Source: Phycisphaerae bacterium
GTDB lineage: Bacteria; Planctomycetota; Phycisphaerae; UBA1845; DATKUK01
NCBI GenBank assembly: GCA_035530655.1
Contig: DATKUK010000080.1
Span: 4,534-68,533 of the forward strand
Length of the DNA stretch: 64,000 bases
Reading direction: 5' to 3'
Shown here: positions 5,425-57,958 of the stretch, piece after piece
Numbering within the stretch: position 1 is the stretch's first letter
How the letters are laid out: each line of letters starts with the position of its first letter
The notes under the pieces: model-generated
What the model saw: the letters and a program-made list of their open reading frames with translations, nothing else
Told to the model about the DNA's origin: nothing
Databases searched by the model: none
Position numbers and translations under genes: made by a program

Positions 5425-5781
5425 TCAGTCGGCATTATGCGACAAGGACTGCGGCAGGGCAAACGTGCCGTCAGGGCCTGGTTCAAATCTGCAAACCGTG
5501 GCCACGGCATCGAGGTTCAGGGGCCCGTAGACATGGGGGAAGAGCTTTTCACCGCCTTCAAGGTTCTCGTAGCGGATCTGAGGGACGACCTTGTCGGGAT
5601 CGATGCACAGCAGAACCAGGTCGGTCTGATTCCGGAACAAGAAGTTGGCCACGGCGACGACCTGGTCGGGCTTGGAGCAGTGGATGAAGCCCTGCGAGCG
5701 CAGTGTTTCGGCTTCATACCGGCCAGCCTTCTGTGCCTCCTCCCATTGGGATCGCTTCGTGATGTGCAGAATGATGCTCAT
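5425..5781 (-). CDS. DUF952 domain protein
   Basis: Trimmed to MSIILHITKRSQWEEA at 5781. GFIHCS and FPHVYGPLN motifs are typical of DUF952. Confidence 0.75.
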   Translation of the reverse strand: MSIILHITKRSQWEEAQKAGRYEAETLRSQGFIHCSKPDQVVAVANFLFRNQTDLVLLCIDPDKVVPQIRYENLEGGEKLFPHVYGPLNLDAVATVCRFEPGPDGTFALPQSLSHNAD

Positions 5782-5896
5782 GTGTGATGGCCTCGCTGCG
5801 GTTCTCGCGGGCTTTTTCGGCAGGTCCCAGAGCACGGGACCACGGTCGGCTGACGCCTTGCCCCGGCGCGGTGGGGCACCCGCGCTCCACGCCGCG

Positions 5897-6841
5897 CTAC
5901 TCTGGCGCAGGGCCGAGCCTGCCCAGTAGCAGGTCGTCGATGTTCTTAAAGTCGGCCTTCAGCCAGTCCGGCGGAACGCCTATCTCGGCCATTTTTGCGA
6001 AGAACGCGGCCTCAAATTGCTGACATTCCTGGCAGCCCTGGGAATCGTTGAACATGGCGAAGGCGCGGGCGACCCGGTCGCAGAAACTGTCCGTGTGTGC
6101 GGCTCTGCCGAGAACGAGATCGACGCCGCGCTGGAACATCGGCTTGAACTGCCGACCAAGCGTCGTCGAGTCGACCATCGCCATCAGCTTCCCCGCGTAT
6201 GGCAGCGGCTTGCCGTCCAGCAGGAAGCAGAGCTTCAACAGCTCGGTCACCGTGTTCAGGATGGCCGTCGACGCAGCCAGGGCACTGTCGTCGCTCGTGT
6301 CGTGCAGCGGCGTGACGCAGATAGACCAGTAACCCGCCAGCAGCCAGTGATACTTGACCTTCTTTACGAGCACGTCATGGGGGTAGCCGTCGAACGTCGA
6401 ACGTATCCGCTGGAATTGCCGGTCGGGATCGACGATCACCCGGGCGTTCAGCCACACCCAGAGCCATGGATCGGTGCAGGTGGCGATGTGGCGGTGCACA
6501 TCTGCCAGGCTCGTGACCGAGAAGTGCGGGCGTCCCCTGCTCGCGCCGAAGTACGCCTCCCACCCACACTCGGGTGCTGTTACGACCCCGAAGCTGTCGG
6601 GGCTCTCGATGATGCCGGCTGCGAGCGACTCACGGTGCACCGCTCGGTACACCGCGTCGGGACAGAGCACGTCTATGTCCACGTCGGAGGCGTCGGCATG
6701 GACCCCTCGGGCACGGCTGCCGGTCAGCAGCACCGTAAAGCATGCGCGAGGGTCGTCGACCCCGGGCAGCGTGTAGATCTGCTGCTCGACGTAGCGCATG
6801 AACGCGTCTTTGTCGATGCCTGTGGTCTTCCAGTCAGTCAC
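5897..6841 (-). CDS. Nucleotidyltransferase-domain protein (DUF4037-like), paralog 2
   Basis: 314 aa. NTase signature LLTGSRARGVHADASDVDIDVL followed by a helical domain. Same architecture as 803..1768. Confidence 0.7.
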   Translation of the reverse strand: MTDWKTTGIDKDAFMRYVEQQIYTLPGVDDPRACFTVLLTGSRARGVHADASDVDIDVLCPDAVYRAVHRESLAAGIIESPDSFGVVTAPECGWEAYFGASRGRPHFSVTSLADVHRHIATCTDPWLWVWLNARVIVDPDRQFQRIRSTFDGYPHDVLVKKVKYHWLLAGYWSICVTPLHDTSDDSALAASTAILNTVTELLKLCFLLDGKPLPYAGKLMAMVDSTTLGRQFKPMFQRGVDLVLGRAAHTDSFCDRVARAFAMFNDSQGCQECQQFEAAFFAKMAEIGVPPDWLKADFKNIDDLLLGRLGPAPE

Positions 6842-53115: not shown

Positions 53116-53252
53116 TCACTTCATCATCTTGCGGAAAGAATCCCGGGCGTCGCCGACCTGACGCCGAATCCGCCGGACGAGGCGACGGGCCCAGACGAAC
53201 TCGGTCCCCAGCAGGGCCAGACCTGCCGGTAACACGACAAACGCCGGCCCGG
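53116..53252. repeat. Displaced copy of the terC 3' end (left boundary repeat of islet)
   Basis: 137 bp, 10 mismatches against 56732-56868. The minus-strand translation PGPAFVVLPAGLALLGTEFVWARRLVRRIRRQVGDARDSFRKMMK* differs from the TerC C-terminus at only 2 residues. Confidence 0.9.
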
Positions 53253-53307
53253 TTTCCACACCCTTGACGCCCACCTACCGCCGCGTACACTGAACGTCGA
53301 GGTTTAG

Positions 53308-53646
53308 GACTGGGAGGACTGGCCGACGCCCATCAAATACGCCCTGTTCGAGAACAACATCACTGCCGATCCCGACGACTACGCAGCCATGGTCCAGATC
53401 AGCGGCAGCGCCGACGGCGACGATCTGGTCCAGGACATCATCGACCAGGGCACGACGGTGAACAAGCCGGACATCCTGGCGGTGACCGCCGCCCTCAAGC
53501 TGGCCTGCCAGCGGCGGGTTGAGCAGGGCCAGCGGGTCAACTACTTCGGCATGATGGACTTCTTCCCGCGGATCAAGGGCGTCTTCACCGGCCCGACCGA
53601 CAGCTTCGACCAGGCCTGCTACCGCGTGGACATCGGGGCCAATGCG
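53308..53646 (+). pseudogene. N-terminal fragment of an HU_HIG / DUF4469-type DNA-binding protein
   Basis: The open frame after the TAG at 53305 reads ..IKYALFENNITADPDDYAAMVQISGSADGDDLVQDIIDQGTTVNKPDILAVTAAL...GVFTGPTDSFDQACYRVDIGANA, matching the N-terminal domain of Bacteroidota-type DUF4469 proteins. There is no start codon at the expected position, and homology breaks at about 53646. Confidence 0.7.
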
Positions 53647-53698
53647 TTTTCTACCTCTGGGTTGATTGGCAATGTTTTGCCGGTTAGAATTCGTAAGA

Positions 53699-54016
53699 AT
53701 GGACGTACTGCTCCAGATCAAGCGGCTGGTGGTGCAAGGACGGATACGGTTCACCGAAAAGGCTCGCGAGGAAATGGAGGCCGACGGATTGAGCGCGGGC
53801 GAGGTGATCGAATCGATCGCCAACGCCCAGGCCATCGCGAAGACTCTTCGGTCACGCAGCCGCACCAAGCGCTATTCAGGTGAGAAACTCTATGTCATCA
53901 AAAGCTTCAGCTACGACGGGACGCTCATCTATACGAAGGGGGCCATCGTCCGCCAAGCGAAACAAGAAGTCTTCTACGTCTTCGTCTCCGCGAAGATCGC
54001 CACGCTCGGTGGGTAA
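53699..54016 (+). CDS. MqsR-like type II toxin
   Basis: ATG at 53699. 105 aa. LLQIKRLVVQGRIRFTEKAREEMEADGLS...KLYVIKSF...IYTKGAIV...VFVSAK follows the MqsR-family pattern. AT-rich leader. Confidence 0.6.
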   Translation: MDVLLQIKRLVVQGRIRFTEKAREEMEADGLSAGEVIESIANAQAIAKTLRSRSRTKRYSGEKLYVIKSFSYDGTLIYTKGAIVRQAKQEVFYVFVSAKIATLGG

Positions 54017-54206
54017 ACACCCTGGGCTGAAGGTTTGCGTCTCGTGTGGATCACGACGCGTCCAATCCAAAAGGGTGTCGGTTCGCCTGCGGGACGGACG
54101 GAGGGTGACCGGTGTCAAAGCTGATGTGTGTGCCGCGTGCGGCGAGCGTTACTTCGACCTGGAAGCGATGCGACAGCTCGAAGCCGAGCGCACGGACGAC
54201 GAATGA
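54009..54206 (+). CDS. YgiT-type zinc-finger antitoxin (MqsA N-terminal-domain-like, no HTH)
   Basis: GTG at 54009 overlaps the toxin end by 8 nt. 65 aa with CVSCG...x27...CAACGERYFD, the YgiT zinc-ribbon signature. Confidence 0.65.
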   Translation: MGKHPGLKVCVSCGSRRVQSKRVSVRLRDGRRVTGVKADVCAACGERYFDLEAMRQLEAERTDDE

Positions 54207-54457
54207 CCGGCAACCGCTTGAAGTTCGACCCCAACGAGGCTGACGAGGGCCTCTACTTCGTGGCCGACGCCAGCGGCGAGACCAAGGTGTCCACCGTCCA
54301 GAAGAACAAGCCCTCACAGCTCGTCTTCCTGGTCCCGGCGGGACTGGCAGCGGGCACATACCACCTGGAAGTCCGGGCCAGGATGGGCAGCGGCACATCG
54401 GCCCGCGAACTGCGTATGGGACGTCTGGACTCGACGCTGACGGTCCTGCCGATGTAG
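54203..54457 (+). pseudogene. C-terminal DUF4469 (Ig-like) fragment, possibly still translated
   Basis: MTGNRLKFDPNEADEGLYFVADASGETKVSTVQKNKPSQLVFLVPAGLAAGTYHLEV...LTVLP matches the DUF4469 C-terminal domain. Its ATG overlaps the antitoxin stop (ATGA). Different frame from the N-terminal fragment. Confidence 0.6.
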
Positions 54458-54916
54458 GGTAGGCTGGCAAATCGGCGGTCGGGTATTCGTGGCACAGGCG
54501 TCTCGCCTGTGGGTCAATCAGCGCGATCGCCGGTCCGAAAAGCGGTTTTCGGACCTTCGGGTCTGGCAAAATGGGCAATTTGGATAAGTTGTGCGGTGTT
54601 ATGAACTCCGGAAAAACCGTTTCCAAGCTAAGATCGATTACCACGCCTTACTTGGCGCGGGCGCCCGCATCCAAGCTGGGAGTCGGTGTCGGCCTCAACA
54701 GGAGTCGGGACCGCGTAAGCTGCCTACTCGGTCCCGATACCGTGCTTACTCGGTCCCGACCTCACCGAGGTCCGAACCGGACTTCACTGAGGTGCGCGGC
54801 CGACTTCAAGCTGGTGGTCTGCGCACCCAACCCTACGGGACTCCAAGCATAGGAGGACAGTCGGTGACAACAATGACTTACGATCTTGACACGGCTCACT
54901 TCATAGGAGCTTCATT

Positions 54917-55381
54917 GTGAACACAAGACTGATCGGCTCAATATTTCTTGTCTTTGCCACAGTGTGCCCATCTTCGGCCTTCGCTGATGATACCGATGAC
55001 CTGCCCGTCGCTGCCTACCGCGGAGACTTAAACCGCGTGCGGTCTCTTCTGTCCGCCGGTGCCGATGTGAACGCCAAAGCCACTGCCGGCGTGACGGCCT
55101 TGTGGCAGGCGGCCGCAAATGGTCATACTGAGATTGTCAAGGCCCTGCTGGAAAGCAAAGCTAATGTGAACGTGCAACGGAAAACCGATAGCTCTACTCC
55201 GTTATTCGTGGCTGCAGTATATGGCCACGCTGATATAGTCAAGGTCCTGCTGGAGGCAGCGGCGGATGTGAATGCCAAGGTACATGCCGCCGGCGAGGAC
55301 CATACACCTTTGAGCATCGCCACACAGAGGGGCCACACGGAAGTTATCAAGCTCTTGACGGAATATGGAGCCAAGGATTAG
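54917..55381 (+). CDS. Secreted ankyrin-repeat protein
   Basis: GTG start preceded by AGGAG. Signal peptide MNTRLIGSIFLVFATVCPSSAFA. Three to four ANK repeats (G.TALW.AA.NGH.EIVKALLE..A.VN). About 52% GC in a hand-counted line. Confidence 0.85.
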   Translation: MNTRLIGSIFLVFATVCPSSAFADDTDDLPVAAYRGDLNRVRSLLSAGADVNAKATAGVTALWQAAANGHTEIVKALLESKANVNVQRKTDSSTPLFVAAVYGHADIVKVLLEAAADVNAKVHAAGEDHTPLSIATQRGHTEVIKLLTEYGAKD

Positions 55382-55588
55382 CGCTCCGTGCCCGGTGATC
55401 GGCCGCCCCATCCCCGCTTGCGAAAGCGACCCGATCTCGCGTGAGCAGCAGGCGCCGGGTGCCACTGCTCTGTGAGCAGTGTTTGGCGCATCGACTGTGT
55501 CCCATGGCGGAGCACTGCTGACCCTTCGGCTGCGCTCAGGGCAGGCGCCGCAGCAGCACACCGACCCTATTAAGCAAGGAGCAAGAAG

Positions 55589-55912
55589 ATGGCAGAAAAG
55601 ACGATCATGTAGCCGGGCGCATCCGGGAAGGAGTACAAGTACTGGATCTACCCGATCGGTGCTTCTTTCAAGGATACCCCAGGGAATTACATCTTCGCAA
55701 AGCAGACGTCTCCTGACCGTTGGGCTCCCGTCTACATCGGAGAGACAGGTACTTTGAAGGACCGTCTGTCGAATCATGAGAAGATCCCCTGTCTCAAGCG
55801 TTACGGCGGCACGCATGTCCATGTGCACACGAGCTCCGCAGACGAGGAGACGCGAAGGGCAGAGGAGTCGGACCTCCTCGCGAAGTGGGATCCGCCCTGC
55901 AATAAGGAGTAG
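55589..55912 (+). pseudogene. GIY-YIG-like small nuclease-family gene with in-frame TAG at codon 8
   Basis: Not in the ORF track. AAGGAG-N7-ATG at 55589, then MAEKTIM-TAG(55610-55612)-PGASGKEYKYWIYPIGASFKDTPGNYIFAKQ...PVYIGETGTLKDRLSNHE..., a GIY-YIG-like core (NYIF...VYIGET...R). Stop at 55910-55912. Confidence 0.6.
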
Positions 55913-55992
55913 CCGCGTAGGGTGCGTCGAGGACACACCTTCTCCTGCTGACGCACGTCAAGCCGGTTCGGCAGAACGAGATTCTCACGGCG

Positions 55993-56325
55993 ATGAAGCG
56001 CTACAAGGACTACAGCGTGGCGTTCGCCCGGACCCTGATCCTGAAGACGCCGCCACCCTTGCGTGCGACCCGGAAGGGGCGAAAGCGCAATCCATGGAAC
56101 AAAACGGCCCAGCGCAAGAATGACCTGCTCAAGAAGCTGGCCGAGGCCGAGCAGAAGCACGACTTCTACTCCCGTTTGTATAGGCAGTACACGATCGACC
56201 TGCTGCGGCTAGCCATCCACGCGCGTGGCCTGCTGACCAACAGCCGGATTCGTGAGCACCTGCATCAACACCGCCCGGATATCGTGGCGCGTTTCGGGAC
56301 AATCATCGCGGATGCACGAGGATAG
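55993..56325 (+). CDS. Hypothetical protein
   Basis: 110 aa ORF in the islet, basic and helical, with no domain recognised. The next small ORF starts 5 nt after its stop. Confidence 0.35.
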   Translation: MKRYKDYSVAFARTLILKTPPPLRATRKGRKRNPWNKTAQRKNDLLKKLAEAEQKHDFYSRLYRQYTIDLLRLAIHARGLLTNSRIREHLHQHRPDIVARFGTIIADARG

Positions 56326-56329
56326 CACC

Positions 56330-56500
56330 ATGGCCAAGTGGACAGGCGAGAAGACCATCCGCCAGATTCTGCGGCGTGAGGCAGCGGGGCTGCCGCTGTC
56401 TCCCGGTGGCAGCAGGGAGGGAGTAGAATCGAAGCTGCAAATGGCCGGATCGCGTGTGGTCTATGCCCGTGATGTACGCTCCGGCAGGCCTTACGAATGA
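56330..56500 (+). CDS. Hypothetical small protein
   Basis: ATG at 56330 preceded by GAGGA. 56 aa (MAKWTGEKTIRQILRREAAGLPLS...). Confidence 0.3.
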   Translation: MAKWTGEKTIRQILRREAAGLPLSPGGSREGVESKLQMAGSRVVYARDVRSGRPYE

Positions 56501-56512
56501 AGGAGGTTCCCG

Positions 56513-56902
56513 GTGCGCAGACAAGTCGCGACGATCTTCGTGCTGGCCATGTTGCTGGCCGCCAACAGTTGGGGACAGGCTGCGAACCGGGCAGCCGCGC
56601 CGCCGGGAGGCTGGTCGAGCGAATCAACGTCAGCTGCGCTCGGCCAGCAGGGTCGCAGGCAACGCGCGACTGCTCGCGGGCCGGACCGCCGGCCCGGCGC
56701 CCCACGGACTCTGATCGCTCGGGACGCGCCGTCACTTCATCATGTTGCGGAAAGAATCCCGTGCGTCGCCGACCTGACGCCGAATCCGCCGGATGAGGCG
56801 ACGGGCCCAGACGAACTCGGTGCCCAGAAGCGCCAGCCCCGCCGGCAGCACGACAAACGCCGGCCCGGGAAGCACGATCATCGCCACGCCGACGATCAGT
56901 AG
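56513..56902 (+). CDS. Possible small secreted protein (3' part doubtful)
   Basis: GTG at 56513 preceded by AAGGAGG. Signal-peptide-like MRRQVATIFVLAMLLAANSWGQAA. The rest is low complexity and runs antisense into the terC 3' end, so the true extent is unclear. Confidence 0.25.
   Translation: MRRQVATIFVLAMLLAANSWGQAANRAAAPPGGWSSESTSAALGQQGRRQRATARGPDRRPGAPRTLIARDAPSLHHVAERIPCVADLTPNPPDEATGPDELGAQKRQPRRQHDKRRPGKHDHRHADDQ
56732..56868. repeat. terC 3' end copy in functional position (right boundary repeat of islet)
   Basis: 137 bp matching 53116-53252. Begins exactly at the terC stop codon. Confidence 0.9.
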
Positions 56903-57958
56903 GCTCGTACCAACCACCAGAATCACGATTCGCCTGGCCTGTCTGAGCGTGAGTTCGGCCAGGTCACTCGTTTGGTCGATCAGGGTCGCTGCCAGGGCCG
57001 CCGTGTCGCGCTTCGCGCCGAAGACCGAGGCCAGCACCCCCACCGACAGCATGCCGCCGATGACCGCCAACGAGACCGGCGTGGGAATAGGGTGATGATG
57101 CACCAGCATCATCTTCACCCCCACGAACGCCAGCACAAACACGAGGCTCATCTTCAGGTAGCGGAACTTGCCGATCAAAGCGGCCAGCGCGAAGTACAGC
57201 GAACGCAGACCCAGAATCGCGAATACGTTGGACGTGAACACCAGAAACGGATCCTGCGTTACGGCGAAGATCGCGGGAATCGAATCGACAGCGAACAGAA
57301 CGTCCGTGCTTTCGACGACCAACAGAACCAGAAACAAGGGCGTGATCGCACGGCGACCGTCGACGCGCGTAAAGAAACGCTCGCCCTCGAATGTCCTGCT
57401 TACCGGATAGACACGCCGCGCGAGCTTCACCAGCGGATTCCGCTCCGGCTCCAAATTGTCGTGCCGTACGATCAGCATCTTGACGGCGGTGAGCATCAGC
57501 AGACCACCGAAGACGTAGACCATCCACGAGAATCGGGACAACAGCACGCTTCCGCCGGCGATCATCGCGCCGCGCATCACCAACGCCCCCAGTATGCCCC
57601 AGAAGAGCGTCCGGTGCTGATACGCCGCCGGTACCTGAAAATAAGTGAAGATCAGAGCGATGATGAAAATGTTGTCAACGCTCAGGCTCTTCTCCAAGAC
57701 ATAGCCCGTGAGGAACTGAAGGCAGGCATGGTATCCCGTCAGAGTGTCGGTCGTGGGCAGGCGGATGTGCGCCCAGTGACCTTCGTAGAGGTAATACACC
57801 AGGACCGTAAAGCCCAGCGATACCGCCACCCACATCCCTGTCCATGCCAATGCCTCGCTCGCGCTGATGACCCGGGCCCGGCGATTGAACACGCCCAGGT
57901 CAGCCGCCAGCATCAACAGCACCAGCAGCACAAAGCCGACCCAAACCCAGATCGTCAT
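56732..57958 (-). CDS. TerC-family membrane protein with C-terminal PGPGW-like extension
   Basis: 408 aa. TerC-type helices (EKSLSVDNIFIIALIF, ESTDVLFAVDSIPAIFAV). The C-terminal extra TM pair contains LPGPAFVVLPAGLALLG. Confidence 0.88.
   Translation of the reverse strand: MTIWVWVGFVLLVLLMLAADLGVFNRRARVISASEALAWTGMWVAVSLGFTVLVYYLYEGHWAHIRLPTTDTLTGYHACLQFLTGYVLEKSLSVDNIFIIALIFTYFQVPAAYQHRTLFWGILGALVMRGAMIAGGSVLLSRFSWMVYVFGGLLMLTAVKMLIVRHDNLEPERNPLVKLARRVYPVSRTFEGERFFTRVDGRRAITPLFLVLLVVESTDVLFAVDSIPAIFAVTQDPFLVFTSNVFAILGLRSLYFALAALIGKFRYLKMSLVFVLAFVGVKMMLVHHHPIPTPVSLAVIGGMLSVGVLASVFGAKRDTAALAATLIDQTSDLAELTLRQARRIVILVVGTSLLIVGVAMIVLPGPAFVVLPAGLALLGTEFVWARRLIRRIRRQVGDARDSFRNMMK

Follow-up and report, generated by a model that had tools for sequence, protein, structure and literature searches.

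A 64,000-nucleotide stretch of a Phycisphaerae genome (assembly GCA_035530655.1, contig DATKUK010000080.1, positions 4,534 to 68,533 of the forward strand; referred to in its entirety as the window) was found to carry a 563-bp toxin-antitoxin (TA) cassette within a gene of the HU-DNA_bdg/DUF4469 type, and the same junctions between cassette and host gene were present in at least seven other Phycisphaerae/Planctomycetota loci. Because these junctions are common to other genomes, the replacement of host sequence by the cassette is not particular to this one, and sequence comparison points to one event in the ancestor of the cassette clade as the source of the 151-bp replacement. The cassette is probably a travelling selfish element carrying scraps of a host gene, rather than the trace of a one-off event. 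A preliminary description, made from the window sequence alone, had portrayed the insertion as an uncommon and directly visible event; the junctions are instead old and shared.

The breakpoints were defined by DNA alignment of the window with a locus encoding an intact homologue (L002, GCA_030612785.1), which is ~90% identical to the window inclusive of the non-coding flanks. Window positions 53258-53643 aligned with L002 1778-2164 and positions 54207-54759 with L002 2316-2865, which places the breakpoints between 53643 and 53644 and between 54206 and 54207. The host stretch lost from the window corresponds to L002 2165-2315, a total of 151 bp that encompasses codons 107-156 (~50 codons); this length is not divisible by three, which puts the two remaining fragments in different frames. 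The intact gene encodes 238 amino acids (aa), of which window positions 53326-53643 and 54207-54454 represent the two ends, with DNA identities to L002 of 92% and 88.6%, respectively. Between 53300 and 54460 the plus strand is consequently occupied by four successive reading frames, and the features of the split gene are as follows.

53264-53291, plus strand: DUF4469 promoter-like site TTGACG-16-TACACT (promoter scan), with the ribosome-binding site GGGAGG downstream at 53312-53317
53326-53643, plus strand: N-terminal fragment of the HU-DNA_bdg/DUF4469 gene, codons 1-106 (PF14848); pseudogene, ATG changed to ACG
53644-54206, plus strand: TA cassette, 563 bp in place of 151 bp of the host gene (alignment to the intact L002 and L001)
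53662-53690, plus strand: cassette promoter-like site TTGATT-17-TAGAAT (promoter scan), 8 nt 5' of the toxin ATG
53699-54016, plus strand: toxin gene, 105 aa, ATG 53699 to TAA 54016; predicted RelE/ParE (BECR)-type fold
54009-54206, plus strand: antitoxin gene, 65 aa, GTG 54009 to TGA 54206; YgiT/MqsA-N-type zinc ribbon, CxxC...CxxC, without a helix-turn-helix (HTH)
54203-54457, plus strand: C-terminal fragment open reading frame (ORF), 84 aa, ATG 54203 to TAG 54457 (PF14734)
54458-54796, plus strand: conserved non-coding tail of DUF4469 genes, holding the hairpin GGTCCGAAAAGCGGTTTTCGGACC; 86-88% identity to L002 and L084, 79% to L017

Profile searches placed both fragments above their cut-offs. 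The N-terminal fragment, read from 53308, matched PF14848 (HU-DNA_bdg) with an E-value of 7.6e-16 and 58.7 bits (cut-off 30) over profile positions 2-100 of 124, whilst its score against PF18291 was 20.9 bits, under the Pfam cut-off of 26.2. The C-terminal fragment matched PF14734 (DUF4469) with an E-value of 4.5e-16 and 59.1 bits (cut-off 22.6) over profile positions 23-98 of 101. The cassette begins 55 bp 5' of the toxin ATG and stops exactly at the antitoxin stop codon, where its terminal GAATGA supplies the start codon of the C-terminal fragment together with the opening base of its second codon, DUF4469-derived sequence resuming at 54207 (codon 157). The toxin and antitoxin genes overlap by 8 nt, GTG 54009 being the sole in-frame antitoxin start found by reading the sequence; gene callers had picked differing starts in related loci. 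The promoter scan returned two sites against 0.3 expected, and the DUF4469 promoter region, from ~53258, is ~90% conserved in L002, L007, L084 and L085.

The intact gene begins ATG CCC ATC, whereas the window reads ACG CCC ATC at 53326-53328, with the upstream GGGAGG unharmed. The N-terminal fragment is not translatable from its normal start because the ATG is now ACG; its first in-frame start (of ATG, GTG or TTG) is ATG 53389, from which the product would lose 21 residues and run out of frame into the toxin gene. With the ACG start and with codons 107-156 replaced, a continuous ~238-aa ORF with a start codon is not present, and the window copy of DUF4469 is a pseudogene that does not count as a member protein. 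Thus far the preliminary description holds up well: the TA cassette inside a DUF4469-type gene with ~50 codons removed, the fragments in different frames and above profile cut-offs, the N-terminal fragment without a start codon, the 8-nt overlap (GTG 54009 and TAA 54016) and the C-terminal ATG that shares an ATGA with the antitoxin stop codon (ATG 54203, TGA 54206) were all reproduced, and alignment to intact homologues, the check it had proposed, did yield the breakpoints. An assembly artefact was ruled out by four identical independent assemblies (JGI 3300031539, ENA ERZ27256847, and Logan SRR8554503 and SRR8554511), each identical to the window over the parts of 53200-54600 that it covers; three of the four cover this interval completely, including the ACG. 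The split gene is thus a genuine feature that has become fixed in the population. Neither a second DUF4469 copy nor a second TA copy was found in the 64-kb window.

The junction-sharing loci comprised L007/L015/L068, L010, L017, L047, L053, L058 and L059. Their toxins are ~87-88% identical to that of the window where full length, one copy being badly degraded, and their neighbouring genes differ in every case. For instance, L007/L015/L068, originating from another Phycisphaerae metagenome-assembled genome (MAG) and encoding a toxin with 88% identity, is neighboured by genes for a GAF histidine kinase and RNase II. The DUF4469 promoter and the whole N-terminal fragment precede the cassette in this locus, both the left junction (GGGGCTAAT followed directly by GCGCTTTCT) and the right junction (GACGACGAATGA followed directly by CTGGCAGCCGCCTGAAGTTCGAC) are as in the window, and the C-terminal fragment yields to unrelated sequence after ~30 bp. 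In the other loci, left-hand DUF4469 remnants of 41 bp (L010) and 32 bp (L017) and one in L047 were recognized, along with right-hand remnants of 76 bp (L059), ~47 bp (L058) and ~51 bp (L053). When the remnants were assessed with 2000 shuffles per test, p-values below 0.0005 were obtained on the right side for L007, L053, L058 and L059 and on the left side for L007, L017 and L047; L010 returned p = 0.012, and L022 was marginal (p ~0.02 on both sides). DUF4469 remnants beside distant cassettes of at most 80% identity (L016, L060, L018, L019 and L020) were not significant in this test.

Five truncated DUF4469 proteins that retain only the N-terminal part (P0074, P0084, P0104, P0106 and P0114) were also considered as TA-split copies and rejected: P0074 is a frameshift, P0084 and P0106 are apparently incomplete gene calls ending inside normal sequence, P0104 contains an insert resembling a miniature inverted-repeat transposable element (MITE), and P0114 ends at the junction of a different cassette, encoding a PIN-domain protein. 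One MAG, CSMAG_1437, carries two copies of the cassette on separate contigs, namely L016, with a stop in the toxin gene, and L053, which is badly degraded and keeps its 51-bp remnant of the C-terminal fragment.

A hypothetical protein encoded by a Phycisphaerae MAG (P0121) matches the toxin with 100% identity, and the toxin belongs to a family of which 178 members were detected, nearly all of 105 aa and none with a Pfam annotation. Its best, though weak, Pfam match was to DUF4258 (PF14076; 17.2 bits, under the gathering score of 25), and weak matches to this family were returned for 18 of 35 homologues (best E-value 0.0017). Scores against MqsR_toxin (PF15723) were 13.7-14 bits, under the cut-off of 26.2, with weak matches in just four of the 35. 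An AlphaFold2 model built with the 35 homologues was confident, with a predicted local distance difference test score (pLDDT) of 88.6, and comprised three helices and four or five strands. Foldseek searches with this model returned 7vd7_A, a Salmonella TA toxin (E-value 2e-3, template-modelling (TM) score 0.53-0.58), together with BrnT (3u97, TM score 0.51-0.65) and YoeB/ParE (6n90) among the further top matches; none was strong, no match had an E-value of 0.001 or less, and a sequence-profile search of the PDB with the toxin gave no match. The model points to a RelE/ParE (BECR)-type fold, and the toxin is presumably an mRNA-cleaving RNase.

The antitoxin matched the YgiT_finger model TIGR03831 with 28.7 bits (cut-off 20.2) and has two CxxC pairs, CVSC and CAAC. 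It failed the full-length MqsA model (TIGR03830; 20.3 bits, under 61.8) because it has no HTH domain, and it aligned with positions 3-56 of the 131 in PF15731 only. The preliminary description had named the pair an MqsR-like toxin and a YgiT antitoxin; the zinc finger passes its cut-off, whereas the MqsR label is tenable at the superfamily level only. Among 63 related genomic and metagenomic loci, almost every toxin gene has a zinc-ribbon gene behind it; where a taxon is named, nearly all of these loci belong to Phycisphaerae or other Planctomycetota. The ratio of non-synonymous to synonymous substitution rates (omega) of the toxin was 0.12 against L007 and 0.33-0.38 against L010 and L059, and that of the antitoxin was 0.22 against L007, values that indicate purifying selection on both. 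The pattern TTGATT...TTAG(A/G)AT is kept in the closest cassettes; a palindrome in the promoter spacer, GGCAA-N4-TTGCC, was dropped as a candidate operator because it is not kept in them. Toxin genes interrupted by stops or frameshifts alongside an antitoxin ORF that is still open were observed in L016, L017, L022, L047 and L058, and such erosion is a pattern reported for chromosomal TA systems (PMC13617665).

As in MqsR/MqsA (YgiU/YgiT of E. coli), the toxin gene comes first and overlaps the antitoxin gene, an order shared by nearly all related loci, and the CxxC...CxxC ribbon corresponds to the toxin-binding N-domain of MqsA. Unlike in that system, the toxin falls under the MqsR cut-off and the 65-aa antitoxin is without the C-terminal XRE-HTH that gives MqsA its DNA binding and autoregulation. 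DUF4258 is a BECR-fold family of uncharacterised activity for which DUF4258-MqsA fusions are on record (PMC11980606). The MqsA-type partner is a likeness to these toxins, as is the Pfam match, which lies under the gathering score; the modules tabulated in that study are ordered antitoxin then toxin, whereas here the toxin is first. We conclude from these comparisons that the cassette is probably a type II TA module, functional-looking and of MqsRA-like architecture, outside the MqsR family by family thresholds, and would be an unannotated new member of the RelE/ParE-plus-MqsA-N class. Neutralisation of the toxin by the antitoxin, and addiction, are putative. A family of ~105-aa toxins outside Pfam, paired with a minimal HTH-less MqsA-type zinc ribbon, invites inquiry into the regulation of modules of this kind.

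The host gene was examined with a database search using the joined fragments, which retrieved 233 homologues, nearly all of those listed being ~238 aa with both domains. Intact homologues, which derive from MAGs of Phycisphaerae and other Planctomycetota, showed identities of 57-72% when compared with the joined fragments across the gap and of up to 96% in the N-terminal fragment. By this comparison the intact 238-aa gene (70 intact homologues) plainly represents the normal condition, the split copies being derived and decaying. With that exception, the old and shared split junction comes near to an outcome that the preliminary description had named as one that would overturn it, a split arrangement as the ancestral state. 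The G+C content of the fragments is 0.62-0.68, at or slightly above surroundings mostly of 0.58-0.67, whilst that of the cassette is 0.56-0.59. With intact homologues abundant in Phycisphaerae and a fragment G+C of this kind, the suggested inter-phylum transfer from Bacteroidota finds no support. Proteins with a HU-HIG domain fused to an Ig-like domain have been described from Bacteroidetes, without conserved neighbours (Burroughs et al. 2017, PMC5499826; PDB 4FMR, Bacteroides vulgatus). The Phycisphaerae proteins resemble these in combining an HU-like domain with a DUF4469 Ig-like domain and in having no conserved operon partners; they differ in lineage, in their length of 238 aa and in matching PF14848 better than PF18291. 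A PDB sequence search with the intact protein P0001 gave nothing useful and did not reach 4FMR, and no mention of DUF4469 was found in the literature searched.

In the intact loci examined, homology begins at the promoter (~53258) and runs at least 240-350 bp past the stop codon where the contig allows, with different neighbours in each case, so that the DUF4469 gene and its short tail look like a relocatable unit. In tblastn, DUF4469 homology seemed to reach into the antitoxin gene at its 3' end (the match 'GSDAT...'); this was attributed to chance, the DNA not being alignable.

If the flanks had been dead since the junction arose, neutral divergence comparable to the synonymous divergence (dS) of the cassette would be expected. 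The toxin dS relative to the window was 0.15-0.27 for the nearest remnant-bearing cassettes and 0.46 for L007. The N-terminal fragment of the window has only eight private sites in 318 bp (five synonymous, three non-synonymous), private sites being those that differ from all four intact DNA sequences, and the intact genes themselves have 5-10. That of L007 has 23 (five synonymous, 18 non-synonymous), a neutral ratio, with several at positions invariant in 70 intact proteins. The L007 fragment thus fits the expectation and the N-terminal fragment of the window does not. Relative to the 70 intact proteins, the private residues of the window are only M1T, R98C, H99Y and G129S, and over codons 2-95 its N-terminal fragment shares 90 of 94 residues with the intact P0001 and only 80 of 94 with the L007 fragment. 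The window and L007 agree against the intact L002 and L001 at three sites only, all of them in codons 99-101 and within 24 bp of the junction; H99 is invariant in the 70 intact proteins and is Y in both split copies. The C-terminal fragment has 14 private sites, against 7-8 in intact genes, and an omega of 0.15 against L001. Together, these comparisons suggest that the flanks of the window are younger than the cassette lineage. The simplest reading of the N-terminal side is that of a mosaic, in which the junction-proximal arm would have come with the cassette and the rest would be a recently disrupted resident allele.

We regard the following account as probable. A TA module once replaced 151 bp of the interdomain region in a Phycisphaerae HU-DNA_bdg/DUF4469 gene, and the resulting composite of DUF4469 left arm, TA genes and DUF4469 right arm would since have spread among Phycisphaerae genomes, its arms eroding unequally. 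As the arms are almost pristine in this genome, recent entry is most likely: a cassette with short old arms would have entered a resident intact DUF4469 allele fairly recently, with homologous recombination as the putative route, or alternatively an intact copy would have renewed the arms through gene conversion. The host start codon would have mutated to ACG afterwards. Both DUF4469 pieces would be dead remnants, and the cassette may be retained through the addictive, selfish behaviour usual for TA modules.

Several points weigh against this account. No sister strain with an intact DUF4469 at the TerC-ABC locus was found, and none of the intact loci L001, L002, L084 and L085, in which an empty site was sought via synteny, has the neighbours of the window, so allelic replacement is argued indirectly. 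The implied left arm of ~24-40 bp approaches the minimum length for RecA-type recombination. Comparisons of dS draw on ~75 synonymous sites per gene and on no more than four intact DNA sequences. H99Y, a C-to-T transition, may have arisen on two occasions, and it is missing from the remnants in L017, L010 and L047. The 14 private sites of the C-terminal fragment fit an older, donor-derived right arm but also simple relaxed selection, and the same pattern would result if an intact paralogue at another genomic site had converted the flanks.

Other TA modules were also encountered in connection with DUF4469 genes. In L017 (3472-3750), a HicB-like ORF (MRAVVLHRGEDGYWVVECPSLPGCISQ...) lies right after the antitoxin stop and is followed by a truncated HicA-like start (SKLPIISGRGY...), the conserved DUF4469 downstream tail resuming after this hicBA remnant; a second TA module therefore took the place of the C-terminal fragment in this locus. 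L059 encodes, at 849-1682, a PIN_3-domain protein and a small downstream ORF after a second DUF4469 N-terminal piece, which ends ...IDVGA/VGTGGG (the stroke marking its junction), only 3 bp away from where the MqsR-like cassette joins the gene, and P0114 ends alike. In L081, whose PIN protein is 92% identical, a DUF4469 C-terminal remnant is situated ~110 bp downstream (1339-1398). These instances hint that the DUF4469 locus may act as a landing pad, or slot, for several TA types. If the right junction of the PIN cassette does lie immediately before CCGGCAGCCGCTTGAAG, the slot would be common to different TA types.

The C-terminal fragment bears on the proposal of the preliminary description that it had been captured as a third cistron of the TA operon. 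The GAATGA cassette end is kept in L007, L010, L053, L058 and L059, yet the fragment itself is elsewhere cut to 2-26 codons, fused or replaced (4 codons in L010; 26 in L059, followed by an element resembling repetitive extragenic palindromic (REP) sequences). In L007 a chimeric ORF of 135 aa (5505-5912) starts from the same ATGA overlap and shares its first ~9 codons, after which it continues with unrelated sequence (...GKTAHYMLRWIATTGEKGLWSETA...). As the ATG is supplied by the cassette end, approximately one junction frame in three would give such an ORF. The 84-aa ORF would accordingly be a by-product of the GAATGA end; its translation by coupling could occur, with no sign of selection or capture discernible in the comparisons.

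The reading of a recent, unique insertion with a coupled third cistron and a host gene from Bacteroidota is one to which we attach very little weight. The window does have the ATGA overlap and an uninterrupted 84-aa ORF, the fragment is well kept (88.6% DNA identity to L002 and the low omega against L001), and L007 has an ORF from the same ATG; these are outweighed by the junctions common to at least seven other loci, in all of which the C-terminal fragment is truncated, fused or replaced, by an ATG that forms part of a conserved GAATGA, by the loss of the first 22 of the 101 positions of the Ig-domain profile and, as regards origin, by close intact homologues from Phycisphaerae. A single ancient insertion followed by vertical inheritance and local rearrangement, in which the window merely retained its long flanks and the cassette never re-entered an intact allele, is a more serious competitor that we nonetheless consider unlikely. 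Identical junctions everywhere are most simply derived from one event, flank loss elsewhere could reflect deletion instead of point decay, and dS is noisy for small genes. Such a history would predict ~0.08-0.25 substitutions per site on the window branch at a neutral ratio, in place of the eight private sites in 318 bp and the purifying-like ratio that were seen; moreover, the L007 fragment does appear neutral, and the N-terminal fragment of the window is nearer to intact alleles than to L007.

Independent insertion of MqsR-like/YgiT, PIN and HicAB cassettes at a hot spot where the HU domain ends, with the junctions reflecting site preference, is in our estimation improbable. It would accommodate the PIN cassette 3 bp from the junction (L059 and P0114), the C-terminal remnant in L081, the hicB and truncated hicA in the place of the C-terminal fragment in L017, and the MITE-like inserts in otherwise intact DUF4469 genes (P0018 and P0104). 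On the other hand, the junctions of the MqsR-like cassette are base-identical in all loci with the same 151 bp gone, which indicates one event; the junctions show neither a recombinase nor an attC-like site nor a duplicated target; and the PIN evidence comprises three short contigs, distant PIN loci having no DUF4469 remnants. Practically no credence is given to a functional four-gene operon of HU domain, toxin, antitoxin and Ig domain, in which the HU fragment would give DNA binding to the HTH-less antitoxin. The antitoxin does lack a DNA-binding domain, the HU fragment is directly upstream under its own promoter, and the L007 fragment keeps its ATG. The window and all four assemblies of its population have lost the start codon, however, and 18 of the 23 private changes of the evidently neutral L007 fragment are non-synonymous, several at invariant positions; most related cassettes are without any N-terminal fragment.

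Under the account of spread with DUF4469 arms, one further and more tentative proposal may be made, namely that the cassette is a gene-targeted selfish allele: the DUF4469 halves would serve as homology arms that convert intact genes, giving an endonuclease-free, homing-like spread held by addiction, and the locus would become a landing pad for PIN and HicAB modules. Homing inserts such as inteins and group I introns with homing endonucleases likewise occupy one exact site in many genomes, and polymorphisms near the junction (here codons 99-101) may travel with them. In contrast to homing inserts, the cassette has neither an endonuclease nor splicing and the host gene is destroyed, so that spread would need host recombination and post-segregational killing; the likeness is no more than an analogy.

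Recombinase-free movement of chromosomal TA modules is still debated. The present locus offers a natural test case for the spread of TA islets by homologous recombination through their flanks and subsequent erosion, the course that has been proposed for compact TA islets, which would recombine at flanking genes and then erode (PMC13617665). Similarly to those islets (Belot et al. 2026, PMC13617665), the cassette is without a recombinase of its own, occurs in unrelated neighbourhoods, often has a pseudogenised toxin, and shares its spot with other TA genes (hicBA in L017, PIN in L059). It differs in that the arms are the halves of one disrupted gene that travel with the cassette and in that a base-exact junction recurs, whereas the flanking core genes of the islets in Belot et al. 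2026 (PMC13617665) stay intact.

The split gene is itself contained in a ~3.5-kb segment bracketed by two direct repeats. Besides the DUF4469::TA locus, this segment comprises an ankyrin gene and ORFs that match nothing in Pfam.

53116-53252, minus strand: direct-repeat copy A, the orphan last 137 nt (stop included) of a TerC/PGPGW gene, 93% identical to copy B
56732-56868, minus strand: direct-repeat copy B, with which the TerC/PGPGW gene (56732-57958) now terminates at its 3' end, identified by repeat search

The start of the repeat coincides exactly with the stop codon of TerC. Copy A translates to GPAFVVLPAGLALLGTEFVWARRLVRRIRRQVGDARDSFRKMMK followed by a stop codon, was called as a 52-aa PGPGW gene in L003, and adjoins the DUF4469 promoter region. 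For annotation purposes, both this 52-aa 'PGPGW' ORF and the 84-aa 'DUF4469' ORF of this population are to be regarded as gene fragments. No integrase or recombinase was found between the repeats, the ORFs of 54571-56735 matching only ankyrin repeats in Pfam; an integron integrase was likewise absent from the ORFs scanned between the two copies. As to an integron cassette, the repeat search reported inverted repeats at neither end of the cassette, and host sequence follows right after the antitoxin stop. No tRNA genes that could serve as an island target were found in the window. The segment looks like a decayed island integrated in a gene 3' end, for which the repeats would represent attachment (att) sites.

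The 9 bp with which the repeat ends, CGCCGGCCC, are present 5' of the DUF4469 promoter in L007 as well. The ankyrin-repeat gene, which has a signal-peptide-like sequence, encodes 154 aa in the window (54917-55381) and 554 aa in L003 (7219-8883); L003 (JGI 3300031539) is otherwise 99.7-99.99% identical, with a repeat-number difference of ~1.2 kb at ~55061-55172, and this length difference reflects either population variation or assembly collapse of repeats. REP/MITE-like elements (AATCCGCAATC repeats and TGGCACAGGC...GCCTGTG hairpins) are situated around and inside DUF4469 genes, at P0018, P0104, L059 733-848, L081 ~1300-1340 and window ~54489-54560. In P0018 (282 aa) there is a 44-aa in-frame insert after DEGLYF, and in P0104 the insert is in the linker. 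Window positions 55454-55563 and 55936-56081 were 79-92% identical to non-adjacent stretches of L002 (6992-7240) and L058 (4087-4191), and are probably dispersed repeats common to Phycisphaerae genomes.

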